DNA from: Alphaproteobacteria bacterium | Lineage (GTDB): Bacteria; Pseudomonadota; Alphaproteobacteria; Rs-D84 | Length of the DNA stretch: 58,784 nucleotides | Reading direction: 5' to 3' | Assembly: GCA_017471805.1 (NCBI GenBank) | Contig: JAFURS010000016.1 | Location: forward strand, 1 to 58,784 | Shown: piece after piece, positions 11,795 through 55,219 of the stretch | Layout of the letters: each line of letters starts with the position of its first letter | Numbering within the stretch: the first letter of the stretch is position 1 | Translations under genes and position numbers: made by a program | Notes under the pieces: generated by a model | Database searches by the model: none | Told to the model about the DNA's origin: nothing | What the model saw: the letters and a program-made list of their open reading frames with translations, nothing else

Positions 11795-11868
11795 TGGTGC
11801 GGGCGAAGGGAATCGAACCCTCGTCTTCAGCTTGGGAAGCTGACGTGCTACCATTATACCACGCCCGC
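11795..11868 (-). tRNA. tRNA-Gly (anticodon CCC), CCA encoded
   Basis: GCGGGCG...TCAGC-TTCCCAA-GCTGA...GAGGG-TTCGATT-CCCTT-CGCCCGC-A-CCA folds as a cloverleaf; 74 nt. A terminator hairpin lies at 11760-11794. Confidence 0.95.
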
Positions 11869-12124: not shown

Positions 12125-12556
12125 ATGGCAACTGTTATTCGTTTGGCACGTTTCGGTGCAAAAAAACGTCCATACTATCACATTGTTGTGACTGATTCAC
12201 GCAATGCACGTAATTCAGGTAATGTCTTGGAAGTCGTCGGTAAATACGACCCAATGCAGGCAAAAGATAGCGAAAAACGTGTTATCTTGAAATTGGATGA
12301 AGTTAAAGCCTGGTTGGCAAAAGGCGCACAGCCTTCAGACCGTGTTTATAAATTTTTGGCCAAGGCCGGTTTGGTTAAACCAAAGGCAATTCCTGTGCAG
12401 ACTAAAAAGCATTTGCAGTCTGAAAAAACACAGATGAAGATTAAAGATAAGGCTGAAAAGTTGGCAAAAATTGCAGCAGAAAAAGCCGCTGCAGAAGCAG
12501 CCGCCAAGGCAGCAGCCGAAGCACCTGCGGAAACAGCAGAAGCAGTCGCAGAATAA
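12125..12556 (+). CDS. rpsP: 30S ribosomal protein S16 with Ala/Lys/Glu-rich C-terminal extension
   Basis: [30 protein letters not shown]...; AAGGAG Shine-Dalgarno. Confidence 0.95.
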
Positions 12557-12610
12557 TTTTTTGTTCTTAGGTATGCCCGGGGAAACCCGGGCAGAATTAA
12601 GTTAAGGTTT

Positions 12611-12820
12611 ATGGTTATGTCTGATAAGTGCCCGTGTGCAAAAAATTTAGTCTGTTCACAAGTCGAACGTATGGATGAATTTTATCGCCAAATGTCCGAG
12701 GCAATGTTGCAAAACAAGCCTGTGTATTATCTGACGGGCGGTCAATGCCCTGCGTTTTCATCAGAATGTATGAAATTGCGTGAGTTTAGAGCAAGACAAT
12801 TGGCGCAAAATCAAAAATAA
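12611..12820 (+). CDS. Small Cys-rich hypothetical protein (69 aa) inserted between rpsP and rimM
   Basis: TAAGGT Shine-Dalgarno 4 nt upstream. The stop lies 1 nt before the rimM ATG. CPC...C...C...C pattern. Confidence 0.45.
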   Translation: MVMSDKCPCAKNLVCSQVERMDEFYRQMSEAMLQNKPVYYLTGGQCPAFSSECMKLREFRARQLAQNQK

Positions 12821-12821
12821 T

Positions 12822-13286
12822 ATGACAGAATCAAAAAAAATCTTGGTTGGGAAAATTGTTGCACCACAAGGAATCCGTGGCGAAGTGCGTGTTCAGACCT
12901 TTTCTGAGCGGCCAGATGATTTTCGCAAATTTAAAATAATCAGTTCCAGATTCGGGACAGATGATTTTAAGTTTGTGCGTGTGCAACCAAGTTCGTCGGT
13001 TGTAATCGCTAAAATTCGTGGGTTTGATGACCGAAATGCCGCCGAAACACTGCGTGGGACAGAACTGTTTGTTGAACGGGATGCCCTGCCCCCGGTTAAG
13101 GATGACGAATATTATCAGGCTGATTTAATTGGATTTGATGTTGTTCGTGATAATGTGAATTTGGGAACGATTGCCTGTTTTCAGAACTTTGGCGCCGGTG
13201 ATATTATTGAACTGAACAATGGGGATATGGTGTCTTTTGTTGGGGCGACGGTTGATACGGCCACAAAAACAGTATTTGTAAGGTAA
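12822..13286 (+). CDS. rimM: Ribosome maturation factor RimM
   Basis: From ATG 12822: MTESKKILVGKIVAPQGIRGEVRVQTFSE... is a typical RimM N-terminus. The track ORF begins at an upstream GTG. Confidence 0.9.
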   Translation: MTESKKILVGKIVAPQGIRGEVRVQTFSERPDDFRKFKIISSRFGTDDFKFVRVQPSSSVVIAKIRGFDDRNAAETLRGTELFVERDALPPVKDDEYYQADLIGFDVVRDNVNLGTIACFQNFGAGDIIELNNGDMVSFVGATVDTATKTVFVR

Positions 13287-13292
13287 AAGTAT

Positions 13293-13577
13293 ATGACAGA
13301 ATCAAAAAATAACAGTGGTTTTAGTATTGCAAGTTCTTGGGGGATAGTTGTGGTTGCCTGTCCAGGATTACACAAAAATTGCAGATTGCGTAATTATATT
13401 GAAAAAAATGCCAATCTGGCAAAGACGATTGTTGGTCCTGATACAGATGTTATGACGTTGCGCACACTGGGGACAACACAGCAGATTGCGTCAAAAACAC
13501 CAACGCTATATAGTTCTGCAAAAAAGATTTGTGATTTTTGTATGCTGGCCACGGCGAAAAAGGAAAATCAGAAATAA
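13293..13577 (+). CDS. Hypothetical 94-aa protein inserted between rimM and trmD
   Basis: AAGGT Shine-Dalgarno. Its first 18 nt (TATGACAGAATCAAAAAA) duplicate the rimM start. The stop lies 1 nt before the trmD ATG. Confidence 0.4.
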   Translation: MTESKNNSGFSIASSWGIVVVACPGLHKNCRLRNYIEKNANLAKTIVGPDTDVMTLRTLGTTQQIASKTPTLYSSAKKICDFCMLATAKKENQK

Positions 13578-13578
13578 A

Positions 13579-14265
13579 ATGCACTTTAATATACTGACAA
13601 TCTTTCCAGAAATGTTTCCGGGAACCCTGGCGGGTGGTGTTGTTGGGCGTGCGTTGGAAAAAGGCATCTGGACGGCGGACGTTATAAATATTCGTGACTT
13701 TGCAATAAATAACTATGGCAGTGTCGATGACACCCAGTTCGGCGGTGGGGCCGGTATGGTTATGCGGCCTGATGTGTTGGGGGCGGCATTGGATTCGATT
13801 GAAAATCCAGGTAAAATCATATATTTTTCCCCACGTGGCGCAACCTTGAACCAGAAAATGGTGCGTGATTTTGTTGCAGATCAGAATTCAATATACACCC
13901 TGTTGTGTGGACGGTATGAAGGAATTGACCAGCGGGTCATAGACGAATATGATATAAAGGAATTGTCAATTGGCGATTATATATTGTCAGGGGGTGAAAT
14001 TGCAGCGCAAGTTTTTGTTGACAGTTGCGTTCGCCTGATGGATAATGTGGTCCACGGTGGAATTGACACCACCCAAAATGAAAGTTTCGAAATCGGCGGG
14101 CTTGAATGGCCGTTATATACCCGTCCGTCAGTATGGCGTGGACAAAGTGTCCCAGAAGTCCTGCTGTCCGGTCACCACGGCAATATCGAACGGTGGCGGA
14201 AACAACAATCGGTTGACATAACAAAAGAACGTCGGCCGGACTTAATAAAGGAAAATGAAAAATGA
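13579..14265 (+). CDS. trmD: tRNA (guanine37-N1)-methyltransferase TrmD
   Basis: From ATG 13579: [15 protein letters not shown]...; [19 protein letters not shown]. Confidence 0.95.
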
Positions 14266-14654
14266 GCATTATTAAAAAAATCGAAGCAGCCCAGGTTGCA
14301 AAACTGGCGGCAGATAAAAAAATCCCAAACTTCAAGGCTGGGGATACATTAAAGGTTCACGTTAAAATTAAAGACGGTGACAAATTCCGTATCCAGGTTT
14401 TCGAAGGTGTTGTTATCGCACGTGATGGCGGTAATGGGAATAATGCATCCTTTACAGTGCGTCGTGAATCATACGGTGTCGGTGTGGAACGTAAATTCCC
14501 ACTGTATAGCCCTGCAATCGAAAAGATTGAAAAGGTTCGTATTGGTAAAGTGCGTCGTGCAAAGTTGTTCTTTTTGCGTGGGTTGTCTGGGAAAAAGGCA
14601 CGTATTGTCGAAGACCTGGCAGCGGCATCTGCAGAAAAAGCAGCAAACAAATAA
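14262..14654 (+). CDS. rplS: 50S ribosomal protein L19
   Basis: [33 protein letters not shown]...; ATGA overlap with trmD. Confidence 0.96.
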
Positions 14655-21200: not shown

Positions 21201-24200
21201 GTCGAAAGAGTTGATACGGACAGCCTGCCCTAATTTGAACGATGGACTTGGCGTGACGACGACAAGTTCTACATCAGAGAAGATAGAACAGTGTTATTTA
21301 GGGAATATTTGGTATGAACCGGAAAATGGTCATAGTGGTCATAGACGCAGTTGTTATCATACGTCTGATGCAACAGATACAAATGTTGATACGGGATATA
21401 CATATAATTGTGATGTGTCAATAATTGTGACCTGTGATGGCGGGTATTATGACGACGGGGTTTCTGTAAATGCAAACGGCGAACGTGATTGCGTTGAAGT
21501 TGGGGAAAACTATTATAGTCCAGAACAGCTGTATTTCGTCGAAAGAAACAACGAAGATGAACAACCATTGTCTGCGAATCCGGGTTCTTCAACATTGCGT
21601 GTAGCCTGTCCGGCAGGTGGCACAACGAATGGTGCAACAACGTCAGATCGTCCAGAGGATTGTGGTTTATGTCCAGAAGATCACGTCTGCAAGGATGGTG
21701 AACAATATACTTGTTCTGAATTGACGAACGGTGAATACACAAGGTCTGATGCGGGGACAGAGGATGTTTCGGGGTGCTATAAAGCGTGTGAAAAGTTGTG
21801 TGAAGCACCAACAGATTGTCCGGCAAACTTTGGTAAGTGTACATACGCAACCAGCACGATGAATTCAGGTATCCAATACTATGGAACAACAACTTGTATT
21901 GTGTCTGATAATGAATGTCCTATAGATTGGGATGGTTCAAACCGCTGTGACACGAAGTATTATATGACGGATGCAGAACCATATTGCACGTTGATGTGTA
22001 AGGATTTGCAACCAGTAGGAACATATGATCAGTCTTCTATGGCAACACTAAGCAATCAGGCGGGCGCTTGTTATGGTAGTGGGTCACCAGATTGCGACCA
22101 TTCTAACAACTATGTCTTGGGCGAGGACGGTATGCCGACTGTTGAATATGTTGATTTTTGTCCGGAAAATGCAACCTGTACAGAATCGACAAAGCCAAAG
22201 GTTGGATATGCTTGGTATCCGCTAGATATTTATATCCCTTCATCGTTCTGTAAGTTCACATATGTGTGCGATCCGGGATATAAGGCGGAAACAACAGGAG
22301 ATATTGAGTATGGCTACAAGAAGACGTTGTATGGTGTTGCTTCTACAGCTGTGACTGTGGCATCTTGTTCGCCAGATACTTATACTATCACATTAGATGA
22401 TGCGACAGGTAGTGGTGGTTCGGGAACTATTTATCAGAAGTATAAGACTGGTTGGTTCGCAGATGATGCTGCTGCAACCACGATAAACAAGGTCAAGGTT
22501 CCAACGAAGACAAATTATTCGTTCTTGGGATATTATACTGCCCAGACAGGTGGAACCAAGACAATAGATACAGATGGAACTATCTTGTCGGGTGCAACCT
22601 TTACAAGTAATACGACATTCTATGCACGTTGGTCACAAAATTTAGAGAAGTGCGTTGCAGGAAAGTATTATAAAACAGGGACATTGACAACCTGTATAGC
22701 ACCTTACTATTGTTCGGGTGATGGTAATGTGGCAGTTGGAGAAACAGGCTGTTATAGCGAATGTCCGGCAGGTGGTTATGTTGATAATAATGGCAGCTCA
22801 ACAATAAATGATTGCCACAAGATTATTACAGACGCATCTAAAAACTTCCCGAATGGGACAGCGCAGTGGGATTGCTATTACACAAGTGGTTTTGGCGATA
22901 ACGCACTGTATAGCACGAGTTGTAAGGTTGTGCCATTAACGTGTAATGCAGGATATTACTATGAAGGTAATAATGTTATTGGTTGCACGGCGGTAGAAGA
23001 TAAATATTACAGCCCTGCCAATGATTTGGATAAGAAACTTTGTGAAGGTGGTGACGGATCGGTTAATCCACGTGACAGTATAGAAACCTGTTATGTGAGT
23101 TGTGACCTGAATAAATCTGAAGTGCCACATAGCACAAGTGTGACACCAGATAGCGAACAGGCAATGTATTCGGGTGGGAAGTATGAAACCTGTACATATA
23201 CATTGAACTGTGAAACAGGATATACGGCAGTGCCGGGGGCAAGCCCGAAGTGTAACCCAAATGAATATACGGTTACACTGAATAAGAATGGTGGTTCTGG
23301 TAGTGTCGCAGGTAGTGTAAAATGCACGTTTAACAGTGGTTCGTGCACCCTGCCCGCAACAAGTTCATTGAGTCGACCAGGATATAATGTAGTTGCGAAG
23401 TGGTGCGAAAACAAAGATGGCACGGGAACGTGTTATGCAGCAGGTGCAGCAACGACAACAAACATATCTGCAACTGGTTCCAACACTGAATTGTTTGCGG
23501 TTTGGGCCCCAGCAGTGCTTAAGATTACTTTGAGCGCATCTGATGCAGATAAAAATGCTGACCAAGGACCAGTTTATCTGAAATACGCAACAGGTTGGTA
23601 TTCAGATGCGGCGGCGACAAAACCAATGGTAAGTCTGGGAACAAACTTGCCAAGCAAGGGTGGCGAAGCATATGTGTTTGCAGGATATAAATTGGGCAAT
23701 GTGACAATTATTGACGCAAATGGCACATTACAGAGTGGCGATGCGTTAACTGCGACTACGACAGATGCAACTGCGACTGTGGTTTGGAGTTTGGGGGCAA
23801 CAAACTGTAATCCAGGATATTATTATCCAGGCACAGGTAGTCAGTGTATGGTCTGTAAAGAAAACCATTATTGTCCAGGCGGTAAGTTTGCGACAGACAA
23901 TGGCAGTGTTGGCGGGTTGAACGCTTGTTTGGATGGCGGTTTGTCAGATGGAGGTGTGTCGGCAACAAATATCGGCGTTTGCTATAAGCAACAGTTGGCA
24001 TATGTGTCACCAACCAAAAATGCAACGGGAACACAGACCTGTTATCACGATGGTATCTTGGGATATGTTGCTGGGTGTAAAGATATTGAAGTTAACACTT
24101 GCACAGCAGGACACTACTATGATACTGCACAAACGTTAATTGACTGTGTTGAGGTTGGTGTAAATTATTATAGTCCTGACAAGGTATTGGAACGCACAGC

Positions 24201-26157
24201 CTGTCCGAATGGCGGTATTACGGGAACATTAACAACGGCGGCGGCGGCAACAGAATGCTTCAAGACAGTTGACTTTACATCGGCGTCCGGCAACGGAACG
24301 GGAACACAAGTATGTATGTATACAAGTGGCGAAGGAGACGACGCACGATATGCAACCGATTGTCGTGAACAATATGTCAATAAATGTAAGGGTGGTTATT
24401 ACAAAACAACCAATACGTCGATTGACTGTGATGAAGTTGGACAGAATTATTATAGTGCAGAAGGTGATGTGGAGCGTGATGCCTGTCCGAATGGCGGAAT
24501 GACAGAATCTAAGACTGCTAATGCGCCGACGTTCTGTTATAAGACAGATACGCCATATCAGGGCGAACACGGAAAAGGTATTCAACTGTGTTATTATAAT
24601 GCAGAAACAACTGTATATGACACGGCGTGTGAAACGGTAATATTCCAGGAATGTGATCCGGGATATTATTGGGCGAAACAAGGCGATAAAGATTGTTCTG
24701 TTGTGGACTTTGGTAATTATGGTCCAATTGCTGACGAGAACAATAATGGTAAGCCAACTGCACGGGCGGCATGTCCAAATAATGGTATGACCAAGACAGC
24801 AACCAGTGCAAGTGCAGATGCGTGCTATCTGACAGATGTGGCCTGTGATGTCGCAAATGGAAGTGGTGAACATACCTGTAATTATGACGCAAGCGCAGGT
24901 GCGTATGCTGCAAACTGCACAGCGTGTGTAGTGACAGGATGTGATACAGGTTATTCACAGGTGGGCGATGAATGTATCAACTGTCCAGAAGATAGTGTAT
25001 GTGTTGGTGGCGAACAACAGACCTGTGCGGAATTGACAGGTGGAACACATACAAAGTCTGATGCAGGAACAAATGATGTGGCATATTGCTATAAGGAATG
25101 TGATGTCATTGCAAATGTCGCACAGATGTCAGGTCGTGACTATTATGGTGCAAATGTTGCAGACACCTGTGAAATCAAGGTTTGTGCGGCGGGTTATACA
25201 CTGGCAGATGGCAAGTGTGTCGAATGCCCAGAAGGTTATGTATGTGATCCAAACGATCCAGACAATCCGGGGAAGCCAAAATCTTGTTCTGTGTTGACGG
25301 GTGGAACACATACAATGTCGGATGCAGGTGCAAAGTCGGTAAAAGACTGTTATCAGCAGTGCGAACCATATGAAGTTGTAAATGGAACCGCAGTGCCAGT
25401 CGAAGAAAAGGCTTATTATCCAGCAGAGTGTGATTACGAAGGTCGTTCAGATACAGGTAATCCGTGTGAAATTGTCGACGGTGTATGTATCGAAACGTCG
25501 TGTAATTATAACTTTGAGCTGATAAATGGCGTTTGCAAACCGTGCGCCCGTGAAAATGCAATTACATATAAGCAAAATGGAAATTGCGTTGTTGAATCGT
25601 GTGCATCAGGATTCCATCCAAATGGTCAGGCCTGTGAATCAGACGTGACGGGTTGTGTGGCACCAAATGCATTGGCGGCGACCCAGGTTTGGAACCCAAG
25701 TAAGAACGCATTTGGTGAATGCATTATTACAAAGTGTGATGCAGGTTATCATTTGGCGGCAAATGCGTGTCAGGTTGATGAACAGGTTTGTGAACTGGAA
25801 CACGGTATTGGATTGCAGGAATGGAACCACGATACAAATACGTGGGGCGAATGTATCGCAACCGAATGTGATCCGGGCTATACAAATGACCGCAGCCAGA
25901 CAAATGAACTGTGGAAACAATGCGGACGTTGCAACAATATGTATAGTGCAGATGGCGATTTAGCAGCCAGCAGTTATGTGCAGGAATGTGAAATTGCGGC
26001 CTGTATGTATCAAGGAGAAAAATACATATTGGAAAACAACGAATGTCGTTTGATTTGCAACGAGTTCGAAGATGAAACAGGACGTAGATATTGGGATAAC
26101 AACAAGAAAAAGTGTATCCACGACTGTAATAAAGAAAAAGGCTATGTTCCGTGGTAA
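15274..26157 (+). CDS. Giant secreted surface protein (3627 aa): signal peptide, Listeria-Bacteroides-type (Flg_new-like) repeats, then a Cys-rich module array
   Basis: GAGAGGAAG Shine-Dalgarno. Signal MGRKRSFLGFLATLAMLFVGANAFA. Many Y-T-V-x-(F/Y)-D-x-NGG...GY-x-F-x-GW...LYAQW units. At least 7 modules of TCYYN..C....C.AGYY....DC.EVG.NYYSP....R.ACP. Uninterrupted 10.9-kb frame. Confidence 0.9.
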   Translation: MGRKRSFLGFLATLAMLFVGANAFAAAYSCPTTVNYTSCSAGYYLAENGTYNDCYECPDNSGTGADNIASGCTCNTGYSVSGDATDKTLATQGSPCKPIETVITLTQIGNAQGIDIKATQEGTKYLYTRYGSGTFYSDPTRTTAISEIELPELVYTIRYETQGGSLPSGTAATATSECAFGSYGNSGGTYVDKDGFTREGLSAQNRYTSASDTWYLTWGSCGNIILPTPTKTGYKFTGWSDGTNTYAAGASYTPSGATTTIALVAQWQANCNEITINYTANGADTEGWTKLYKLTDSTAWYGGSNCVLDPFTHIPSLGFKDNATAAGLFTSATGRTQVANGYIAEDDPDNLLLSTTWTVKGPTTLYAQYDCYQNYRGSGTRITGACTGNGYKITLDGNGATSSDTTALYTTYGTNVYLDSPRSKAMTTAANAITKPTRTGYNFKGYYSAASGGLQYVASTGYITSNGLTVGKNATADTTWYAQWTPIDSRFTFVASQATSATNAAGYVYTRYDSGAFLDSDRTQAMSTSANPIYVPSREYTVTYDANGGSVSKTSDTARYTFNGYWTAISGGTQYFAAEVLPSGTGKSYITEAGIAAAKKNTTITELYAQWTDGRVTLPTPERDGYVFKGWYTTGGEEVGDADKTYAPTSTVTLYAQWTVDTYTVSFDLNGGSGSTPSSVTQPYGSDMQPYEELATTPYKTGYTFMGWYDNKTYTSGTKYYNADGTSARTWDKTDDATLYAGWEANTFTVSYAGNGNTGGSAPTSPTSCTYGSTCAAPSNAYTKTGYVFVGWACTGGTTSCDGDIIQPGASLSTVSTGSTITLTAQWVREYTKFTIDNAGGSSSVSEIYLKYDPSSKTFSWVDSTKSTAITKIAIPTRAGHTFTGYAYNPCQYRDTGCALSICFGLSSGCSVDITKTDLTTLKSVSGVSNENYFYFTTDLANENETWTMSANWTQCTGLPDDNAYWTTSTNNTCVWACNACVKGTNAASCSVSKETDSCTYSGTCNVDTYNPTVSGVTVSCSDCPTGSNAAAGNTATSCAWNNYSVTYSCGAGDGTEPAGATATYNSNFTPAANTCSRDGYNFSGWSVSGTSDVKAAGTAFPWTYVEDKTFTAVWVLQGNKAVTYETNGGTINDTSVVSSCNVETATFNLPTNVTKIGYTFAGWYESSDFSGSAVTSVAKGSCLSDLKFYAKWDANAITVVYDGDGQTSGSVANQTCYYDQDCIVQGQGNLLKTNYVFSYWTYNSTLYEVGTNIKNIITGGTVTLTATWKLEYTRIDLGDNGGSGGSGTIYLKYNLTGGLYNGPRVTLTDSNKADITSVKIPIRKGYVFAGYQYDDCEFLSDTDCFLKHGSSEYWEDFIKADGTLLYPDDIIGYQGITGYRTAKAKWTQCTGLPTNADWTISTNNTCTWACGSEFYQSSGTCVNCPTNAKCDGGATWDCLAGYEKNTAGTACQGKEYTVTLDADGGVFGSNSTATVTATYNQVLPDATMPTRTNYNFMGIYSAKNGGGDQYYDASGTPTKVWTTDGGATLYAHWSLGVFTCTAGKAADGTTCSAGSYCPGGNVTAGTETGANGCERTCPADAAGGTVSSVAGATSSAACMTVRKNVELTDKTGAGDQTCYYNSTKADYSNTCTIKVTSCIAGRYRQEESSTTCILTEIGRYSPKNDIAAYNCSDLSGADSTVKTASTGSSAATQCYNTCSNISITNGTQVPVSGTVYYNGTTIPACEYTTSCADGYAVSGTSCVPKVLKVTLDHNGGASTVSEIYLKYNTGWYSDSSANNAITTVAIPTLAGQTFSGYLYGSNIIVDAEGKLTTATRSFTEPVTITASWNQNDSLTCPAGTYYKGTGDTCTDCPVGSYCEGVTVIQGIGTESGRETCSALNGKYTAAKTAAGATMSVTVSSAAKSDSATDCYATNVEYVSNTRYAQGSQTCYYNESTGEYTDSCKSKTVLQCVAGYYLYSSSNVDCSEVGKGYYSGSKELIRTACPNLNDGLGVTTTSSTSEKIEQCYLGNIWYEPENGHSGHRRSCYHTSDATDTNVDTGYTYNCDVSIIVTCDGGYYDDGVSVNANGERDCVEVGENYYSPEQLYFVERNNEDEQPLSANPGSSTLRVACPAGGTTNGATTSDRPEDCGLCPEDHVCKDGEQYTCSELTNGEYTRSDAGTEDVSGCYKACEKLCEAPTDCPANFGKCTYATSTMNSGIQYYGTTTCIVSDNECPIDWDGSNRCDTKYYMTDAEPYCTLMCKDLQPVGTYDQSSMATLSNQAGACYGSGSPDCDHSNNYVLGEDGMPTVEYVDFCPENATCTESTKPKVGYAWYPLDIYIPSSFCKFTYVCDPGYKAETTGDIEYGYKKTLYGVASTAVTVASCSPDTYTITLDDATGSGGSGTIYQKYKTGWFADDAAATTINKVKVPTKTNYSFLGYYTAQTGGTKTIDTDGTILSGATFTSNTTFYARWSQNLEKCVAGKYYKTGTLTTCIAPYYCSGDGNVAVGETGCYSECPAGGYVDNNGSSTINDCHKIITDASKNFPNGTAQWDCYYTSGFGDNALYSTSCKVVPLTCNAGYYYEGNNVIGCTAVEDKYYSPANDLDKKLCEGGDGSVNPRDSIETCYVSCDLNKSEVPHSTSVTPDSEQAMYSGGKYETCTYTLNCETGYTAVPGASPKCNPNEYTVTLNKNGGSGSVAGSVKCTFNSGSCTLPATSSLSRPGYNVVAKWCENKDGTGTCYAAGAATTTNISATGSNTELFAVWAPAVLKITLSASDADKNADQGPVYLKYATGWYSDAAATKPMVSLGTNLPSKGGEAYVFAGYKLGNVTIIDANGTLQSGDALTATTTDATATVVWSLGATNCNPGYYYPGTGSQCMVCKENHYCPGGKFATDNGSVGGLNACLDGGLSDGGVSATNIGVCYKQQLAYVSPTKNATGTQTCYHDGILGYVAGCKDIEVNTCTAGHYYDTAQTLIDCVEVGVNYYSPDKVLERTACPNGGITGTLTTAAAATECFKTVDFTSASGNGTGTQVCMYTSGEGDDARYATDCREQYVNKCKGGYYKTTNTSIDCDEVGQNYYSAEGDVERDACPNGGMTESKTANAPTFCYKTDTPYQGEHGKGIQLCYYNAETTVYDTACETVIFQECDPGYYWAKQGDKDCSVVDFGNYGPIADENNNGKPTARAACPNNGMTKTATSASADACYLTDVACDVANGSGEHTCNYDASAGAYAANCTACVVTGCDTGYSQVGDECINCPEDSVCVGGEQQTCAELTGGTHTKSDAGTNDVAYCYKECDVIANVAQMSGRDYYGANVADTCEIKVCAAGYTLADGKCVECPEGYVCDPNDPDNPGKPKSCSVLTGGTHTMSDAGAKSVKDCYQQCEPYEVVNGTAVPVEEKAYYPAECDYEGRSDTGNPCEIVDGVCIETSCNYNFELINGVCKPCARENAITYKQNGNCVVESCASGFHPNGQACESDVTGCVAPNALAATQVWNPSKNAFGECIITKCDAGYHLAANACQVDEQVCELEHGIGLQEWNHDTNTWGECIATECDPGYTNDRSQTNELWKQCGRCNNMYSADGDLAASSYVQECEIAACMYQGEKYILENNECRLICNEFEDETGRRYWDNNKKKCIHDCNKEKGYVPW

Positions 26158-26186: not shown

Positions 26187-26364
26187 TGGCGTATGTGATG
26201 TGTTGGAACGGCTGGGGGGTATGATTTTCAGGGCGGTGCGGTTGCAAGGCGCATACGCCCTGTTTATTACTTAATGCCCAGACAAGAATTAGGCATTAAA
26301 AGAACAAAATCCCGATTCATTTGACGGCGACTACTGCACCAGCAAGAGTTTAACCGCAGTTTTG

Positions 26365-26997
26365 ATGTCAAGAATGAATCAGTTCACAGATACAGATAAT
26401 GTATTAAATCAATCTGTTTTTGCTAAAAAAACTGATGTATCCACCAAGTCTGATATAAAAGAAATGCGAGAAGATGCAAAAAAATATCTGCTTGGGGTTG
26501 TTAGAAAACAGGATATAAAACATCCTACACTGGGCGAAATACGTGTTTCTAGAACGGGAATTGACGAATTTATTAGCCACAGTAGCAATAAAGATAAATT
26601 AGCGTTAGTGCCGCACTTAAAAGAATTGATAGAAACATCAGTCGTAGGCACAGAAGAATTACCAAGACACCCACGCAAAGATGGAATAGTTGCGTTTATA
26701 CCGTTATATAATGATGCGATAATAGACGATGTGCCATATAATACTAAAATATGGATTGGTAAAGATAAAAAAGGGAACTTGTTTTATGATGTAAAGTTAG
26801 AAAGCACCGAAACTGGTGGCGTTGAGAATCAATCAACGGTCAGTTCCGATGCTCTTAATATGAGTATTACACCAGAAACAACAAATGTCAAGCCATTAAC
26901 GCAACGCACACAATCCAACGGATACTATGATGCAGAGTTAAAGGTTATTGTTCTGGGTAGAAATATGAATACTATGACACTGCCCCGGGGTTGCTAA
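26365..26997 (+). CDS. Hypothetical protein (about 210 aa) resembling a stand-alone module of phage/plasmid polyvalent proteins (possible Barnase/EndoU/RelE-like nuclease domain)
   Basis: GEIRVSRTGIDEFISHSSNKDKLALVPHLKELIETSV...GKDKKGNLFYDVKL pattern, recognised from memory only. No Shine-Dalgarno or clear promoter. Frame is open from 26293. Confidence 0.45.
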   Translation: MSRMNQFTDTDNVLNQSVFAKKTDVSTKSDIKEMREDAKKYLLGVVRKQDIKHPTLGEIRVSRTGIDEFISHSSNKDKLALVPHLKELIETSVVGTEELPRHPRKDGIVAFIPLYNDAIIDDVPYNTKIWIGKDKKGNLFYDVKLESTETGGVENQSTVSSDALNMSITPETTNVKPLTQRTQSNGYYDAELKVIVLGRNMNTMTLPRGC

Positions 26998-27042: not shown

Positions 27043-27861
27043 ATGAAATGCGTTTTAGATGATTTTTTAGATAAAGTTATTTGTGGGGATTCGGCCGAAG
27101 TGTTAAAAAATATCCCGGATAATTCGGTTGATTTTATTCTGACCAGTCCGCCTTATGATAATTTACGTAGTTATAAGGGATTTGTGTTTGATTTTGAAAC
27201 CATCGCAAAAGAATTACAAAGGGTTTTGAAAAATGGCGGAGTATTAGTCTGGATTGTGGGCGATGCCACAATAAATGGTTCTGAGACTTTGTCGTCGTTT
27301 AGACAGGCGTTGTTCTTTCAATCGATTGGTTTGAATTGTCACGATACAATGATATATCAGAAAAATAATTTCAGCAATCCGTCGCAGACACGGTATCATC
27401 AGATATTTGAATATATGTTCGTGTTTTCAAAGGGAAAACCAAAAACATTTAACCCAATAAAAGACAGAAAAAATATTTATGTTGGGTATTCTACACTGGG
27501 TGAAAATACAACAAGAAAGGCGGACGGTGGTTTTTCGAAAAATGGCAAGCGGACAATTCAAGAATATGGTATGAGATATAACATATGGAAAGGAAACACC
27601 GCAGGTCAAGAAAATATGTGCAAGCATATTGCACACCCTGCCCAGTTTCCATTGTGGTTGGCACGTGATAATATTATTTCGTGGACAAATGAAAATGATG
27701 TTGTGCTGGACCCATTTATGGGCGGTGGCACGACGGGATGTGCCTGCAAGGAATTGGGGCGACATTTTATTGGTATTGAAATTGAACCGACATATTGCCA
27801 ATTATCAACAGAACGTATTCAAAATCACAAATGTTGCGCCCCAGAATTACCGTTAAAGTAG
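27043..27861 (+). CDS. Beta-class DNA amino-methyltransferase (N4-cytosine or N6-adenine), Type II R-M
   Basis: Motif IV ILTSPPYDN near the N-terminus and motif I VLDPFMGGGTTG near the C-terminus (beta permutation); 272 aa. Confidence 0.88.
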   Translation: MKCVLDDFLDKVICGDSAEVLKNIPDNSVDFILTSPPYDNLRSYKGFVFDFETIAKELQRVLKNGGVLVWIVGDATINGSETLSSFRQALFFQSIGLNCHDTMIYQKNNFSNPSQTRYHQIFEYMFVFSKGKPKTFNPIKDRKNIYVGYSTLGENTTRKADGGFSKNGKRTIQEYGMRYNIWKGNTAGQENMCKHIAHPAQFPLWLARDNIISWTNENDVVLDPFMGGGTTGCACKELGRHFIGIEIEPTYCQLSTERIQNHKCCAPELPLK

Positions 27862-28458
27862 GTCGCTGGGCTTGTAAAGGTTTTTGTTATCTTGGTTGAA
27901 TTCTAGTTTCAATTTGACATTTTTCAAAAACATATCTGTAAAATGCCAATCCAGGATTGTATGTGGACCTTTGGCGTTTTCGCTGGTGGTTGCAAACCCA
28001 ACTAATAAATGCGGCGCATCCTTGGTTATTTTGGACGTGTTAGATGGCGAATAAAAGAAGGAACGAAGTGTTGATTGACCACTGGTGTGGGCAAATGTTT
28101 TAACCTCGATATAACAAATGTCGCCGTTTGGTAATTCAATACAGCCATCAGGATAACCAGATTCTTTGCAATGACCGTCAGTATCGGTCGGGGTATGATA
28201 GTTTAAACCAAGTTTTCTGCATTCGGATGCAAATAAATTTTGAACATAGTTTCCAAATTCATTTATGCGCCCAACATATGGATTTGCTGATTCGTTGTTA
28301 TGAGTTGCTGTGTTCTGGGCCGCAATTTTTAATTTGCCAAGCAATTCATCATTATCAAATTTAAGAACCCGGTGGCCGTCAATGCTTTCAACAACGTCTG
28401 CAAATCTAAATACGTGACCGTTTATGGATTTGATGTTGGATAATGCGTCTATTTTCAT
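27853..28458 (-). CDS. Putative Type II restriction endonuclease (PD-(D/E)xK fold, 201 aa)
   Basis: GYPDGCIELPNGDICYIEVK (PD...13 aa...EVK). Convergent with the methyltransferase, 9-nt overlap. AAGGAAG Shine-Dalgarno. Confidence 0.65.
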   Translation of the reverse strand: MKIDALSNIKSINGHVFRFADVVESIDGHRVLKFDNDELLGKLKIAAQNTATHNNESANPYVGRINEFGNYVQNLFASECRKLGLNYHTPTDTDGHCKESGYPDGCIELPNGDICYIEVKTFAHTSGQSTLRSFFYSPSNTSKITKDAPHLLVGFATTSENAKGPHTILDWHFTDMFLKNVKLKLEFNQDNKNLYKPSDLL

Positions 28459-28480: not shown

Positions 28481-29005
28481 TTAACGAGAGAATATGCGGC
28501 GGGTTTGTAAAAATGGATTTACAAGTGGAACAGGACGATAGCCTGTTTTTTCAACACATACATTTATACAATTTTTATGATTGCTGAAATCATAATCTTG
28601 GATATGAATGTGGCCGTGAATGTTCGCTATGGGGTCATAATCGCCAAATTCTGGCAATGGTTCGTGTGATAACATTATATAGTTTTCGGCATCGTATATC
28701 GGATGCGAATATACACGATCAAATCCACACGATAACCACCAGGTTTCAGAATGACCACGGTCGTGATTGCCCATAATTAAATATTTACGGCCACGTAACT
28801 GCTGTAATATGGCACGAACTTTGTCTTTGGTTGCGCCATACATAATGTCGCCAAGCCAATAACAGATGTCTTGTTTGGAAACGGTTTCGTTGTAATTTTT
28901 TATCAGGGTTTCATTCATTTCTGATACGCTTGAAAATGGACGCTGGCCGTTGATAATTATACTTGCCGAATCAAAGTGTGGGTCCGAGAAAACAAATTTT
29001 GCCAT
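28481..29005 (-). CDS. Small calcineurin-type metallophosphoesterase (COG4186-like, 174 aa)
   Basis: SDPHF, LGDIMYG, GNHD, SHEP and HGHIH metal-binding motifs in canonical order. GGGGGAA Shine-Dalgarno. Confidence 0.85.
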   Translation of the reverse strand: MAKFVFSDPHFDSASIIINGQRPFSSVSEMNETLIKNYNETVSKQDICYWLGDIMYGATKDKVRAILQQLRGRKYLIMGNHDRGHSETWWLSCGFDRVYSHPIYDAENYIMLSHEPLPEFGDYDPIANIHGHIHIQDYDFSNHKNCINVCVEKTGYRPVPLVNPFLQTRRIFSR

Positions 29006-29020
29006 AGTTATTTCCCCCGT

Positions 29021-29938
29021 TTATAATTGTTTTAGGTCTTGGGTTAATGTCTGCAATCGCTGGACAATTGTGTTCCAAGAAACCTGAGGTTGTGTAAATG
29101 TGCCAGACATCGCATAATAATCATCAGAAAGTTGATATAGTGTTTTGTCGTCTGGGATTAAAATTACATCACGTGCGTGCTGTAATGGAATAATTTTTGT
29201 TGTGTGTATTTTCTGATACGAAATTGTGTCTGATAACATATGATGCGTTCGTTCTAGGTCTGTAAAATCAGACAACAACGCCACGTCACAGTAATGACGT
29301 GAATAGGACTTATCAACGTGGGGCGTCCGTGACAGCGCATTGGAATGAAGGGCAAAAACCTTGTCCCAGAATGTTTGCTGATATGCCACAGTTGGAATTG
29401 GGGCAAATGATTGTGGTAATGAATACGGCACAATCCCACGGTATGATATTTGAGCGGAACGATATTTGCGGGCGCTGATTTCAATGCACAGGTGGCCATC
29501 ACCATATTCAGATCGATATAACAAATGCAGTGCCGGTGATGATGCGTGGCGACCAGTGTTTTCAGGCGATGGCCAATCACGGTCGGTTATAATGTCAAAC
29601 ATTTCATCGTGGTTGATAATCGAATCTAGTTTTGAATAAATGTTCGAAAAAGTAAATGTTTTGAACGTTTTCTTGAAATTATTTAACTGACGTTTGGTGC
29701 GCCCAGATGACAGGTCTGTGAAATTTATCAAGGATAAATCTAAATCACGGCCGATACGACTGCTGATTTGATATGACTTGGTTAAGGTTGCACCGCCCGA
29801 AAATACAAAATTGCGACGAAAATAGTCGTTTTGGAAGATTTTATCCAAAACATAACATTCCAGATAGTCGTGAAGTGCTAGTCTGGGGTTTGGGGTGCGG
29901 TCAAATGCCTGATGTATTTCAGGTAATAATTTTATCAT
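29021..29938 (-). CDS. AbiEii/DUF1814 (MenT-like) nucleotidyltransferase family protein (305 aa)
   Basis: FVFSGGATLTKSY...RIGRDLDLSL (GG-x-x-L ... R-x-x-D-x-D) and C-terminal SRHYCDVALL, as in AbiEii-type toxins. Confidence 0.7.
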   Translation of the reverse strand: MIKLLPEIHQAFDRTPNPRLALHDYLECYVLDKIFQNDYFRRNFVFSGGATLTKSYQISSRIGRDLDLSLINFTDLSSGRTKRQLNNFKKTFKTFTFSNIYSKLDSIINHDEMFDIITDRDWPSPENTGRHASSPALHLLYRSEYGDGHLCIEISARKYRSAQISYRGIVPYSLPQSFAPIPTVAYQQTFWDKVFALHSNALSRTPHVDKSYSRHYCDVALLSDFTDLERTHHMLSDTISYQKIHTTKIIPLQHARDVILIPDDKTLYQLSDDYYAMSGTFTQPQVSWNTIVQRLQTLTQDLKQL

Positions 29939-29945
29939 AGTATTT

Positions 29946-29973
29946 AATTTAGCACATATAATTTGTTTGTCAA
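29946..29973 (-). promoter_or_regulatory. Predicted promoter of the NTase-phosphoesterase-endonuclease operon (leaderless arrangement)
   Basis: Minus strand TTGACA-N16-TAAATT, then 7 nt to ATG 29938. Confidence 0.55.
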
Positions 29974-29992: not shown

Positions 29993-30021
29993 TTGACATT
30001 AGGCGGTTGAATCTGTAAAAT
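29993..30021 (+). promoter_or_regulatory. Predicted promoter of the DUF2155 gene (leaderless arrangement)
   Basis: TTGACA-N17-TAAAAT, then 7 nt to ATG 30029. Confidence 0.55.
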
Positions 30022-30028
30022 TCGAGGT

Positions 30029-30376
30029 ATGAAAAATTTATTACTTGGAATTTTGGTAGTTTGCGCCCTGCCCGATGTGGCAGATGCGTTTGTTAATCGC
30101 AATACGGCGGTTGTTCGGATTATGAATAAAGATGCCGGCAAAGTTCAGGAATTTGTTATTCCTGTTAACCAAGAAAAGCAATTCGAAAAATTGTTTATAA
30201 ATATTCGGGCGTGCAAGCAGACGGACCCTTTTCAGGCAGAAGATTTCTTTGCCTTTATCGAAATTTCAGAAAGTTCCAAAGGACTGATTTTTAGCAATTG
30301 GATGAGCCGTAATGAACCAGGTATGAATCCTTTGCAACATCCTGATTATGATGTGTGGTTGGTAAAATGCGAATAG
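30029..30376 (+). CDS. DUF2155 domain protein (alphaproteobacterial periplasmic protein)
   Basis: Signal peptide, then ...FINIRACKQTDPFQAEDFFAFIEISE...IFSNWMSRNEPGMNPLQHPDYDVWLVKC, as in DUF2155. Confidence 0.8.
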   Translation: MKNLLLGILVVCALPDVADAFVNRNTAVVRIMNKDAGKVQEFVIPVNQEKQFEKLFINIRACKQTDPFQAEDFFAFIEISESSKGLIFSNWMSRNEPGMNPLQHPDYDVWLVKCE

Positions 30377-34721: not shown

Positions 34722-34750
34722 TTGCTACGTATTATCATAATTGGTATAAT
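34722..34750 (+). promoter_or_regulatory. Predicted promoter of the MmeI-family gene (leaderless arrangement)
   Basis: TTGCTA-N17-TATAAT, then 7 nt to ATG 34758. Confidence 0.5.
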
Positions 34751-34757
34751 GTCAATT

Positions 34758-37445
34758 ATGATAAACCAAGAGAAATTTTTAGATTTTGTCAAAAAACATA
34801 AAAACGATACAGACGAAGAAAAACAAAAACAATTGTTTTATAATGATTTGTTCGATGTTTTTGGGGTTTGCTTTCAACAATACGCAACATTTGAATATTC
34901 TGTAAAAAATGAGCACGGAAACACAAGTTTTGTTGATGTATTTTATCCACGTGTGCTATTAGTCGAACACAAATCAGCAAGTTTTACAAATCTTGAACCC
35001 GCAATAAAACAAGCAGAAAGTTATTACGAAAGAATAAAACAAGTTGATGAAGTTAAACTACCCAAATATATTTTAGTTAGTAATTTCAAAAAATTTATTC
35101 TGATAAATAAAGAAGACAATGATAAAAGATATGAATTTTCTTTTGAAGAATTAACCAGTAAAAAGAAGATTCATTTATTAGAATTTATTGGTGGTTCAGA
35201 ATTACAAAATATAGAAAGCCAAAAAATTTTATCACAAAAAGCATCATATTTACTGGGAAATTTATTTGATGAATTAGTAAAAAATAAAAATAATGTTGAA
35301 AATTTGAAATTATTTCTTGTAAGAATTTTATTCTGTATGTATGCAGAAGATTCAGGGATAATGGATATTTGTAAATTTTCTTTGTTTATAAAAAATGAAA
35401 CAAAGCAAGACGGTTCAGATACAGGCGAAAAATTATCTCATTTATTTACTACATTGAATAAATCTATTGAAAACAGACCACGAACCGACGATTTATTTAA
35501 TACATTTCCATATGTTAATGGCGGGTTATTTGCAGACAATCTAGAAATACCTGTTTTTACAAAAAAAGCACGGGATTTATTATTAAAATGTTGTGATTAT
35601 GATTGGAATCAAGTATCGCCTATTATTTTTGGTTCGTTGTTTGAAGCTGTCGTTTCAAAGAAACAAAGAGCAGAACTTGGAGAACATTTTACTTCTGAGG
35701 CAAATATACTAAAAACCTTAAAACCTCTTTTCTTAGATAATTTAGAAAAAGAATTTGAAAAATGTTCAAATAAAAATCAATACAAATCGTTTCTTGAAAA
35801 AATTTCTAATATTAAAATATTGGACCCTGCCTGTGGGTGTGGAAATTTCTTAGTTGTTGCTTATTCTGAATTAAGAAAATTAGAATTAAAATGTCTTGAT
35901 AAAATATTTGAACCTGAAAAAAACCTTGTGTTAAATTTTGATGCAAAAACATATAGAAAAGTAAATATTGATAATTTTTATGGAATTGAAATAGAAAGTT
36001 TTCCATGTGAAATCGCCAAAGTCGCTATGTGGCTGATAGAAAATAAATGCGATAGGGAGTTATCAAATAAATTTGGTCAATACATTGCAGATATACCATT
36101 AAAACATACCGTTAATATAACCTGTGGTAATGCATTAACAATTGACTGGAATAGTGTTATATCTAATCAGCAATTATCATATATTGTTGGCAACCCCCCA
36201 TTTATTGGAGCACGCAGAAAAAATCAAACCCAATCCAACGAGATGAAAATGATTTTCAGTAATATTCATGGGGTTGGAAATTTAGATTATGTTTGCGCTT
36301 GGTATAAAAAATGTGCTGATTATATTCATAATACGAATATATCTTGTGCGTTGGTTTCTACAAGCAGTATTACACAAGGACAACAACCATCTATATTATG
36401 GTCCGCCTTGCCAAATTTACATATTAATTTTGCATACAAATCATTCATTTGGAAAAACGAGGGAGCGAATCAAGCAGCGGTATATTGTATTATATTGGGT
36501 TTTTCTGAAAAAAATGAAGTGAACAAGTATATCTTTGATAATAATGGTTGTGATAGAGTAAAAAATATTTCACCAAATTTAACATCTAATGCAAATATTG
36601 TTGTTAATGCTAGAACGAACCCAATAATAGACACAATACCTAGGGCTGTATTTGGCAGTATGCCAAATGATGGCGGCAATTTATTACTTACAAAACAAGA
36701 AAAGAAAGATATTATAGAACAATATCCACATTGTGAAAAATATATTAAACCCTTAATGACAGCAAAATCTTTTATTAACAAAGGAGAACAATACTGTTTA
36801 TGGTTAAAAGATATTCCTGTTAGTGAGTATTCTAATATCCCACCTATTAAACAACGAATAGAAAATGTCAGAGTACATAGATTATCTTCCAATAGACAAG
36901 CCACAAAAAGATTGGCTGAAACCCCAATGTTATTTGGCGAAATACGACAACCAGATACAAATTATATTTTAATTCCAAGCGTATCTTCTGAAAACAGACA
37001 ATATATGCAGATAGCCTTTTTGCCTAAGGATACTATTACTAACAACAGTTGTATCATTGTTCCAACTAACGATTTGTTTTTATTTGGTATTCTTAATTCT
37101 AAACTGCATAATATTTGGAAGGATAAAATTGGTGGAAAATTAAAACAAGATTATAGATATTCAATTCAAAATGTATATAACACTTTTCCATTCCCGAAGA
37201 ATGTATCAAGCGAACAGAAAAAGTTGGTAATATCTTGTGTTGAAAATATTTTAGCAATAAGAAAACAATTTGCTAATTCTTCTATGGCTGAATTATATGG
37301 TAAATTTATGCAACCAGAACTTTTAAAAGCGCATCAAGCACTGGATAAAGCAGTTGAGAGAATTTATACAAGAAAAACATTCAAAGATGATAGTGAAAGA
37401 TTAGAATTCTTATTAAATTTATATCAAGAATATGTTTCAGAATAG
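34758..37445 (+). CDS. MmeI-family Type IIL restriction-modification enzyme (fused PD-ExK endonuclease + gamma-class N6-adenine methyltransferase + TRD)
   Basis: Colinear with MmeI as recalled: FVDVFYPRVLLVEHKS (D...E-x-K), LFLVRILFCMYAEDSGI, FPYVNGGLF, GEHFTSEANILK, LDPACGCGNFL (motif I), GNPPFIG (motif IV), VSTSSITQGQQ, SSENRQY. Start could also be 34749 or TTG 34722. Confidence 0.9.
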   Translation: MINQEKFLDFVKKHKNDTDEEKQKQLFYNDLFDVFGVCFQQYATFEYSVKNEHGNTSFVDVFYPRVLLVEHKSASFTNLEPAIKQAESYYERIKQVDEVKLPKYILVSNFKKFILINKEDNDKRYEFSFEELTSKKKIHLLEFIGGSELQNIESQKILSQKASYLLGNLFDELVKNKNNVENLKLFLVRILFCMYAEDSGIMDICKFSLFIKNETKQDGSDTGEKLSHLFTTLNKSIENRPRTDDLFNTFPYVNGGLFADNLEIPVFTKKARDLLLKCCDYDWNQVSPIIFGSLFEAVVSKKQRAELGEHFTSEANILKTLKPLFLDNLEKEFEKCSNKNQYKSFLEKISNIKILDPACGCGNFLVVAYSELRKLELKCLDKIFEPEKNLVLNFDAKTYRKVNIDNFYGIEIESFPCEIAKVAMWLIENKCDRELSNKFGQYIADIPLKHTVNITCGNALTIDWNSVISNQQLSYIVGNPPFIGARRKNQTQSNEMKMIFSNIHGVGNLDYVCAWYKKCADYIHNTNISCALVSTSSITQGQQPSILWSALPNLHINFAYKSFIWKNEGANQAAVYCIILGFSEKNEVNKYIFDNNGCDRVKNISPNLTSNANIVVNARTNPIIDTIPRAVFGSMPNDGGNLLLTKQEKKDIIEQYPHCEKYIKPLMTAKSFINKGEQYCLWLKDIPVSEYSNIPPIKQRIENVRVHRLSSNRQATKRLAETPMLFGEIRQPDTNYILIPSVSSENRQYMQIAFLPKDTITNNSCIIVPTNDLFLFGILNSKLHNIWKDKIGGKLKQDYRYSIQNVYNTFPFPKNVSSEQKKLVISCVENILAIRKQFANSSMAELYGKFMQPELLKAHQALDKAVERIYTRKTFKDDSERLEFLLNLYQEYVSE

Positions 37446-50990: not shown

Positions 50991-51078
50991 TGGCGGAGCG
51001 TATAGGACTCGAACCTATGGACCAAAAATTTCGGTCACAGATTAGCAATCTGCTGCATTACCACTCTGCCAACGCTCC
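50991..51078 (-). tRNA. tRNA-Ser (anticodon GCU), CCA encoded
   Basis: GGAGCGT...GCAGA-TTGCTAA-TCTGT, long variable arm GACCGAAATTTTTGGTCC, ATAGG-TTCGAGT-CCTAT-ACGCTCC-G-CCA; 88 nt. Confidence 0.95.
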
Positions 51079-55128: not shown

Positions 55129-55219
55129 GGAGACGTGGCAGAGCGGTTGAATGCGCGCGACTCGAAATCGTGTATACGGCAACCCCGTATCAAGGGTTCA
55201 AATCCCTTCGTCTCCGCCA
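55129..55219 (+). tRNA. tRNA-Ser (anticodon CGA), CCA encoded
   Basis: GGAGACG...CGCGA-CTCGAAA-TCGTG, long variable arm, AAGGG-TTCAAAT-CCCTT-CGTCTCC-G-CCA; 91 nt. Confidence 0.95.

Follow-up and report, generated by a model that had tools for sequence, protein, structure and literature searches.

We analysed a 58,784-nucleotide contig (JAFURS010000016.1 of GenBank assembly GCA_017471805.1; hereafter the window) from an alphaproteobacterium of the order Rs-D84 and found that it encodes a nucleotidyltransferase of the AbiEii/MenT toxin family together with a small metallophosphoesterase. The pair is a vertically inherited core feature of the order Rs-D84 / Candidatus Enterousia rather than a mobile defence island, and functional coupling of the two genes is supported by operon structure, exceptionless co-occurrence, a natural gene fusion and pair-specific correlated evolution. 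Judging from the sequences, the clade has lost the antitoxin of this toxin family together with, in most members, the residue through which the antitoxin acts, while all catalytic residues have been kept. Our best reading, offered tentatively, is that the transferase extends RNA (tRNA) 3' ends and that the phosphodiesterase counteracts it. The locus is laid out as follows:

28481..29005, minus strand: small calcineurin-fold metallophosphoesterase (phrog_547 / aq_1665-like), 174 amino acids (aa), with the motifs SDPHF, GDIMYG, GNHD, SHEP and HGHIH.
29006..29020, minus strand: intercistronic spacer of 15 nt, read from the sequence, with the Shine-Dalgarno-like GGGGGAA of the phosphoesterase gene.
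29021..29938, minus strand: AbiEii/MenT-family (DUF1814, Pol-beta fold) nucleotidyltransferase, 305 aa, with FSGGATLTKSY...RIGRDLDLSL and SRHYCDVALL.
29946..29973, minus strand: promoter-like site TTGACA-16 nt-TAAATT with a TG extension, 7 nt 5' of the transferase ATG (consensus scan).
29993..30021, plus strand: promoter-like site TTGACA-17-TAAAAT, facing the DUF2155 gene (consensus scan).
30029..30376, plus strand: divergent DUF2155 gene (Pfam E = 1.6e-23).

The original prediction had described an AbiEii/DUF1814 reading frame with these motifs, preceded by two promoters and a divergent DUF2155 gene instead of an AbiEi/MenA-type partner, and followed 15 nt downstream, behind GGGGGAA, by a phosphoesterase with a full set of metal-binding motifs; all of this was found to be accurate. 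The gap between the transferase ATG (29938) and the DUF2155 gene measures 90 bp and holds the two promoter-like sites back to back. The first 24 nt at each gene start (29916-29939 for the transferase and 30028-30051 for DUF2155) form an 83%-complementary inverted repeat, whose ends encode MIKLLPEI and MKNLLLGI, respectively; in such A+T-rich DNA this may have arisen by chance. Rfam identified three tRNAs in the window and no RNA element at the transferase-phosphoesterase locus.

Profile and structure searches upheld both family assignments, with catalytic residues intact in each protein. The transferase matched the Pfam AbiEii family (PF08843; 55 bits against a cut-off of 22.5, E = 1.4e-14) and, over residues 24-304, the PADLOC AbiEii model PDLC02289 (E = 3.9e-28), and NCBIfam offered no model for it. 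The catalytic set (G48 and G49, D65-x-D67, E153, K193 and R214-H-Y-x-D218) was invariant in 22 and in 39 orthologues, and R61 was likewise invariant in the 22. An AlphaFold2 (AF2) model built on the 22-orthologue alignment (pLDDT 90.9) showed the bilobed fold of MenT3 and JHP933, and the ten best Foldseek matches in the PDB were all MenT3/TglT (Rv1045) or JHP933 (probability 1.00, template-modelling (TM) scores 0.49-0.62). Because PDB sequence searches, with either the single sequence or a 22-sequence profile, returned chance matches only (LolB, HAUS6), the tie to MenT3 comes solely from this fold comparison. Together, these data identify the 305-aa protein as a genuine nucleotidyltransferase of the AbiEii/MenT fold whose catalytic motifs are intact. 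By homology, it would be an active NTP:RNA 3'-end transferase that needs no template; those of its relatives that have been characterised lengthen the CCA ends of tRNAs and prevent aminoacylation (PMC7450476, PMC10435456, PMC11541572).

The phosphoesterase matched Pfam Metallophos (PF00149) at 28 bits (cut-off 21.5) and, far more strongly, the PHROG family phrog_547 'phosphoesterase' (E = 2.7e-36); a sequence search of the PDB recovered 1xm7, an uncharacterised Aquifex protein (E = 1e-6), and PADLOC gave no match at E <= 0.1. Its metal ligands (D8-x-H10, G52-D53, G79-N80-H81-D82, H114 and G131-H132-x-H134) were invariant in 27 sequences. The AF2 model (pLDDT 94.3) was closest to 1xm7 (TM 0.71), followed by LpxH, MJ0936, Rv0805 and Mre11, which places the protein in the phosphodiesterase/pyrophosphatase/nuclease part of the superfamily. 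As each of the two proteins is represented by about 100 or more orthologue clusters with invariant catalytic residues, neither reading frame is a chance feature.

The phrog_547 / aq_1665 family has no characterised member, and COG4186 is mentioned merely in passing in the literature. Relatives at 30-47% identity were abundant in viruses, with at least 558 viral-contig stretches and 694 GenBank phage records, the latter mostly from large Vibrio, Staphylococcus, Enterococcus and Bacillus phages. Helicase and exonuclease genes flank the relative in Bacillus phage Riley, within a module for DNA replication and recombination; we considered this context as a clue to the substrate and dropped it, as a DNA replication module does not identify one. 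Pfam scans of 20 longer relatives revealed no informative extra domain except one S4 RNA-binding domain, borderline and below threshold. A mycobacteriophage phosphoesterase, gp48, has been described as a DNA-damaging counter-defence enzyme (PMC12287305).

To map the distribution of the pair, we ran a profile scan on one genome per species across 185,579 species. It yielded 38 loci whose transferase shares 32-69% identity with that of the window, the next matches being 21-26% identical, and no transferase homologue above 33% identity was found outside the clade. The 38 loci came from Candidatus Enterousia and from metagenome-assembled genomes (MAGs) labelled 'Alphaproteobacteria bacterium' or 'Rickettsiales bacterium', from animal guts including, apparently, one termite gut. 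In all 38 species genomes the phosphoesterase (62-87% identical) lay immediately 3' of the transferase, and the same arrangement recurred without exception in about 10 further loci from NCBI, ENA, JGI and Logan, whichever of the two proteins was used to reach them. The divergent neighbour was always DUF2155, followed by orf101, an amiA-like gene, tsaD and xseA, and in 26 of the 36 informative loci the convergent neighbour downstream was rplS-trmD-rimM(-rpsP), usually 40-100 nt from the phosphoesterase stop codon. The ancestral site of the pair is between DUF2155..tsaD..xseA and the rpsP-rimM-trmD-rplS operon.

This one fixed site in all sampled genomes makes the locus part of the core chromosome. 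The pair shows neither the patchy, mobile distribution nor the defence-island location of AbiE and MenAT, and the proposal that it forms a defence-island or mobile toxin module is not supported: it is confined to one lineage, sits at one site among translation and housekeeping genes, is inherited vertically and evolves with a ratio of non-synonymous to synonymous substitution rates (dN/dS) like that of tsaD and xseA. Conservation of the pairing in other genomes, on which the original prediction had made its claim depend, was borne out throughout Rs-D84, and the pairing was not found outside that lineage. Members of this order have genomes of 0.75-1.0 Mb with about 850-950 genes (PMC12306168), and a rumen survey recorded few recognised defence systems in them (bioRxiv 10.1101/2024.04.04.588093).

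Beyond the clade the two families were encountered apart. None of 80 viral loci encoding phosphoesterase relatives had an AbiEii gene alongside, the three closest non-clade phosphoesterases had no adjoining AbiEii gene, and no phosphoesterase was found at 42 genomic and 12 viral AbiEii loci; plasmids yielded just 3 distant canonical AbiEii genes. At one metagenome locus (L260, 3501-5488; JGI Ga0206975_1110), a canonical AbiEi-AbiEii pair and the gene of a phosphoesterase relative (36% identity, plus strand) run towards each other and overlap at their 3' ends. The AbiEii there keeps the Ser phospho-acceptor discussed below, and the island also bears an integrase. As the sole adjacency of both families seen outside the clade (1 of 75 non-clade metagenome loci, with roughly estimated 0.1 expected by chance), it is a lead, not evidence. 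A separate curiosity was a 473-kb contig labelled 'Muribaculaceae bacterium' (L185; GCA_023665245.1, contig JAMPEH010000001.1) that carries the complete Enterousia-type block with the pair; its taxonomic label is probably wrong, through mis-binning or mislabelling.

Given that AbiEii and MenT enzymes are normally held in check by a neighbouring antitoxin, we looked for one. No AbiEi-type gene adjoins the transferase, whose upstream 90 bp hold promoters only, and a hidden Markov model of the AbiEi-like partners of the nearest canonical relatives found no match at E <= 10 in the window or in 43 related loci; the same model gave 46 matches in the positive control. Among the 42 nearest non-clade AbiEii genes, about 40 (35 scored) had a partner gene of about 205 aa upstream, mostly overlapping, and the five canonical upstream partners that were scanned with Pfam were all DUF6088/AbiEi_4.

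The loss extends to the residue on which the antitoxin acts. In characterised members, the phospho-acceptor is a Ser/Thr that precedes the first catalytic Asp by two residues (MenT1 T39, MenT3 S78; PMC11375011), and its antitoxin-induced auto-phosphorylation switches the toxin off (PMC11375011; bioRxiv 10.64898/2026.01.19.700257). This position was Ser in 42 of 42 canonical non-clade relatives (motif R-F-S-E-D-x-D). In the window transferase it is Gly63 (RIGRDLDL), so that the conserved Ser/Thr of the family is missing, and across 39 clade sequences it was Gly in 25, Cys in 6, Ser in 6 and Asn in 2, leaving 33 of the 39 without Ser. An enzyme of this kind would presumably no longer be restrainable by AbiEi-induced auto-phosphorylation.

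These residues also bear on the idea of the phosphoesterase as a protein phosphatase, which would restore activity to a transferase that has phosphorylated itself and would thus be its activator, not its antidote. MenT1, MenT3 and AbiEii are indeed switched off by auto-phosphorylation of an active-site Ser/Thr, and the PP2C phosphatases PstP and SaSTP restore activity in vitro, the role of a cellular phosphatase being an open question (bioRxiv 10.64898/2026.01.19.700257; PMC11375011). The idea is weakened, however, by Gly63 and by the absence of the acceptor residue from most clade members, in which the phosphoesterase is nonetheless highly conserved throughout; nor is there an AbiEi-like protein to induce phosphorylation. 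PPP Ser/Thr protein phosphatases carry the signature GDxHG, GDxVDRG and GNHE. The phosphoesterase lacks these motifs and instead has those of the phosphodiesterase/nuclease type (GNHD and GD, in addition to SDPHF and GDIMYG), and no lambda-phosphatase or PPP structure appeared among its fold matches. We regard a protein-phosphatase role as very unlikely.

Several features indicated that the two genes are expressed and evolve as a unit. Clade-wide, the promoter region contained an invariant TTGACAAA, an extended -10 'TGT' and an A/T-rich -10 hexamer ending 4-9 nt before the transferase ATG. The promoter has a constitutive-looking consensus, and no operator or repressor was seen. None of 39 loci had a Shine-Dalgarno sequence longer than 4 nt before the transferase ATG, which, with a promoter abutting the start codon, implies that the transferase mRNA is leaderless or nearly so; a Shine-Dalgarno sequence of 4 nt or more preceded the phosphoesterase in 30 of the 39. 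In orthologous loci the two genes lay on the same strand, separated by 0-24 nt or overlapping by 4 nt. At the same syntenic site in one genome (GCA_011262095.1, contig JAAGKN010000093.1, locus L184 6001-7467), they were naturally fused in frame into a single protein of 488 aa (P0205), and the junction (…NLSSINNRIFAYVYSDPHF…) is effectively linker-less, with no stop codon, ATG or Shine-Dalgarno sequence. An exhaustive phmmer search of 1.84 billion representatives with this fusion revealed, among its best 150 matches, no other protein that aligns with both halves.

We also asked whether the proteins diverge in step, using partial Mantel tests in which species divergence was regressed out via TsaD and XseA distances. 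The correlation between transferase and phosphoesterase was r = 0.60 (p <= 0.0005), while the other nine neighbouring gene pairs gave 0.06-0.29. This result speaks to the possibility that the two are functionally unrelated neighbours held together by regional synteny in streamlined genomes. Adjacency as such is unspecific, as DUF2155-orf101-amiA-tsaD-xseA and, usually, rplS-trmD-rimM are equally conserved in the order. Against a bystander relationship stand the pair-specific correlation, the existence of the fusion, and the single common promoter with its coupling-type spacing. Moreover, both are accessory-type genes flanked by universal ones, and their arrangement has no homologue elsewhere, which suggests joint acquisition. 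We consider chance neighbourship the least probable of the explanations weighed here.

Both genes are kept under strong purifying selection, like their housekeeping neighbours. In close species pairs, dN/dS was 0.03-0.10 for the transferase, 0.03-0.11 for the phosphoesterase and 0.03-0.08 for tsaD, with xseA similar; the transferase values rule out gene-wide positive selection on that gene, a candidate explanation that we had entertained. At long range, the mean Kimura distance was 0.87 for the transferase, the most diverged protein in the block, 0.35 for the phosphoesterase and 0.21 for TsaD. One orthologue (L041, 8001-8925) is split by a 1-nt insertion (…ACTGATCGT-G-GATTGG…) with the downstream phosphoesterase intact; this frameshift may be a real pseudogene or an assembly error in the MAG.

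To account for these observations, we propose that an AbiE/MenAT-type toxin gene may have given rise to a chromosomally fixed, constitutively transcribed two-enzyme operon. The transferase would add nucleotides without a template to RNA 3' ends, most likely tRNA acceptor ends, like MenT1/3 and AbiEii. The co-translated metallophosphodiesterase would work on the same ends, trimming or otherwise hydrolysing the extension, so that the two act as a writer-eraser pair in which the phosphodiesterase stands in for the lost AbiEi partner and its auto-phosphorylation switch. Enzymatic reversal is plausible because MenT3 can be detoxified in this way: over-expression of either RNase PH or the CCA-adding enzyme PcnA rescues the cells, as the nucleotides that MenT3 has added are trimmed off (PMC11541572). 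Across the clade, a conserved phosphoesterase beside a fast-diverging transferase appears to fit an enzyme with a conserved substrate better than a binding-type antitoxin. We infer three elements of this proposal: tRNA 3' ends as the substrate, the antagonistic direction of the phosphoesterase, and a biological role in growth/translation control or in defence. As a whole, we hold the writer-eraser proposal to be the best available, though somewhat short of probable.

A number of points weigh against it. A bifunctional enzyme whose two activities cooperate would explain at least equally well the fusion (a covalent 1:1 arrangement), the promoter, which looks strong and constitutive, and the retention of the pair in every sampled genome, each of about 900 genes; the fusion is also a single case from one MAG. 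The original prediction had suggested an antitoxin role for the phosphoesterase, and a cooperative repair role suits the fixed core position and the fusion about equally well. The substrate may possibly be DNA or a nucleotide, as phrog_547 proteins are common in large virulent phages and one belongs to the Riley replication/recombination module. Adjacency is weak evidence by itself because the whole neighbourhood is syntenic, and the mirror-tree signal could reflect exchange of both genes together within the clade. Finally, the substrate and the direction in which the phosphoesterase acts are matters of inference.

Cooperation between the enzymes would most naturally take the form of RNA or tRNA 3'-end repair, in which the phosphoesterase heals a 2',3'-cyclic phosphate or 3'-phosphate to a 3'-OH and the transferase re-extends the end, the former toxin having become a housekeeping enzyme. 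Such a role would be in keeping with a module that belongs to the core, is inherited vertically and occurs in each sampled member of a lineage whose genomes measure about 0.75-1 Mb, with housekeeping-like dN/dS, with a consensus promoter that has no operator or repressor, and with the disappearance of the neutralisation switch. The fusion mirrors known repair enzymes that combine a transferase with a phosphoesterase, and in Pnkp of Clostridium thermocellum the healing domain is a metallophosphoesterase (PMC2190708). The 3'-terminal CCA is encoded in each of the window's three tRNA genes, so de novo CCA addition may be dispensable in the organism and a CCA enzyme would be needed for repair only; the borderline S4 RNA-binding domain in one phosphoesterase relative points the same way. 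On the other hand, all characterised DUF1814 enzymes damage tRNA by extending intact CCA ends, and rebuilding of CCA is not known for any of them; the phosphoesterase is of another subtype than lambda phosphatase and Pnkp; and at long range the transferase diverges faster than any other gene of the neighbourhood (0.87 compared with 0.21 for TsaD), which is unusual for a housekeeping enzyme. We view repair as doubtful, yet as the main competitor. Going further, the domesticated toxin might be an essential or near-essential, non-canonical tRNA 3'-end maintenance and quality-control system in Rs-D84 that heals and re-extends or proof-reads ends and might replace the classical CCA-adding/repair enzyme; this we consider improbable.

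A different possibility is that the pair handles a nucleotide product: the transferase would make a small molecule or modify a non-RNA target, and the phosphoesterase would degrade the product. After 1xm7, the closest structures to the phosphoesterase include LpxH, a UDP-sugar pyrophosphatase, MJ0936, and Rv0805, a cyclic-nucleotide phosphodiesterase, and phage calcineurin-fold phosphodiesterases are predicted to destroy nucleotide signals (PMC7824862). Pol-beta-fold transferases also include the signal synthases OAS and cGAS, which did appear among the Foldseek matches to the transferase; these matches were weak and insignificant, however (E > 0.01), the significant ones being MenT3/TglT and JHP933 only. 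Furthermore, no effector or sensor gene accompanies the pair, whose neighbours are rplS and DUF2155. A nucleotide-product system therefore seems quite improbable, less so than a protein phosphatase but more so than the maintenance role above.

The pair shares the DUF1814/PF08843 family, the fold and the catalytic motifs with AbiE (AbiEi-AbiEii of Streptococcus agalactiae) and with MenAT1 and MenAT3 of Mycobacterium tuberculosis, which are classed as type IV/VII. Like these, it is a bicistronic operon and, by analogy, would likely add nucleotides to tRNA 3' ends without a template. Unlike these, it has no AbiEi/COG5340/MenA protein and no autoregulator, its partner gene lies downstream rather than upstream, the phospho-acceptor Ser/Thr is missing in 33 of 39 members, and it occupies a fixed core site across an order. 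Since the antitoxin, the upstream partner position and the patchy mobile distribution are all wanting, the two-gene unit is not an AbiE/MenAT system. PADLOC-DB 2.0 likewise yielded no complete system model; the transferase matched AbiEii models only, without AbiEi.

Were the phosphoesterase to undo the transferase's modification, the logic of a writer toxin and an eraser antidote would be that of DarT-DarG, in which the antitoxin DarG is an enzyme that removes the ADP-ribosylation placed on DNA by the toxin DarT. Folds and chemistry are unrelated, with DNA ADP-ribosylation in that system and a predicted RNA nucleotidylation here. Class II CCA-adding enzymes with an HD domain and Pnkp (kinase-metallophosphoesterase-ligase) also join a nucleotidyltransferase to a metal-dependent phosphoesterase acting on RNA 3' ends (PMC6961547; PMC2190708), and both occur as fusions, in parallel to the 488-aa P0205. 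This resemblance is functional only: the window transferase belongs to DUF1814, not to PolyA_pol or the ligases, its partner is of the small aq_1665/phrog_547 type, not HD or lambda-phosphatase, and no kinase, ligase, Hen1, PolyA_pol or HD domain was detected in either protein or in their neighbours. The phrog_547 / aq_1665 (PDB 1xm7) phosphoesterases of large virulent phages share family, fold and all metal-binding motifs with the window enzyme; in contrast to it, the phage and other non-clade members (30-47% identity) had no adjoining AbiEii gene at 79 of 80 metagenome loci and at 80 of 80 viral loci, the one exception being L260. The claim that the pairing had not been described also stands as far as the searches reached: no DUF1814-metallophosphoesterase pair was found in the literature or in defence-system models. 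We rate as new both the partnership of a known toxin-type enzyme with this phosphoesterase and its domesticated genomic status.

The surroundings of the pair in the window differ from the ancestral arrangement through insertions and include the following features:

12125..14654: rpsP-rimM-trmD-rplS.
15274-26157: Cys-rich repetitive open reading frame (ORF) of 3,627 aa, filling most of a 13.8-kb insertion.
26362-26997: 211-aa ORF with an LPD3 domain (large polyvalent protein-associated domain 3; E = 8e-21).
27043..27861, plus strand: N4/N6 methyltransferase (PF01555, E = 8.5e-44).
27853..28458, minus strand: type II restriction enzyme, 201 aa (PADLOC REase_II, E = 6.7e-13).
34722-37445: MmeI-family type IIL restriction-modification enzyme, 907 aa, with all five MmeI Pfam domains.
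11795-11868, 50991-51078 and 55129-55219: tRNA genes Gly-CCC, Ser-GCU and Ser-CGA, respectively.
51744-53489: 581-aa ORF with zinc-ribbon, carboxyltransferase (AccD-like) and AccA domains.

As rplS is far from the phosphoesterase here, the 13.8 kb between them is an insertion relative to the ancestral arrangement; it holds the 3,627-aa ORF, the LPD3 ORF and the type II restriction-modification pair. The methyltransferase and restriction enzyme genes are convergent, overlap by 9 nt at their 3' ends and lie directly downstream of the phosphoesterase. The original prediction had spoken of a 2- and 3-gene operon, of which the 201-aa gene would be the third member. This candidate was ruled out: the gene encodes the restriction enzyme of a separate insertion and was present only in the window and in L006, the one genome among the 38 relatives that shares the restriction-modification pair (86% and 77% identity). 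These genes are a recent insertion, and the LPD3 ORF probably remains from the mobile element that brought them in. The 3,627-aa ORF is probably a surface protein. L006, L007 and L015 have related giant ORFs at this site, and Hsp70-like or other genes are found there in other relatives, so the rplS-phosphoesterase junction is a variable hotspot in the window's subclade. The MmeI-family gene, which lies between xseA and a recN/SMC-like gene that adjoin in L001 and L004, is a second defence-gene insertion into an otherwise conserved block. The 581-aa ORF appears to be a fused acetyl-CoA carboxylase carboxyltransferase.

To our knowledge, all characterised DUF1814 nucleotidyltransferases (AbiEii, MenT1-4) are toxins restrained by AbiEi or MenA via induced auto-phosphorylation. 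A whole order has discarded both the antitoxin and the phospho-switch, and nevertheless keeps the enzyme under purifying selection with one dedicated phosphodiesterase. The pairing is confined to one uncultured lineage and its mechanism is a proposal, and it would surprise specialists in AbiEii/MenT toxins. It also carries a caution for annotation, in that an 'AbiEii toxin' label in Rs-D84 genomes does not signal a defence system. Recent papers treat the reversal of tRNA nucleotidylation and the re-activation or restraint of AbiEii/MenT enzymes as open questions, on which this locus offers a natural experiment. Should the phosphodiesterase prove to erase the modification, the AbiEii/MenT family would have its first dedicated eraser and a new mode of control; should the two enzymes instead cooperate, the pair would clearly exemplify the domestication of a toxin for the maintenance of RNA ends in streamlined genomes.

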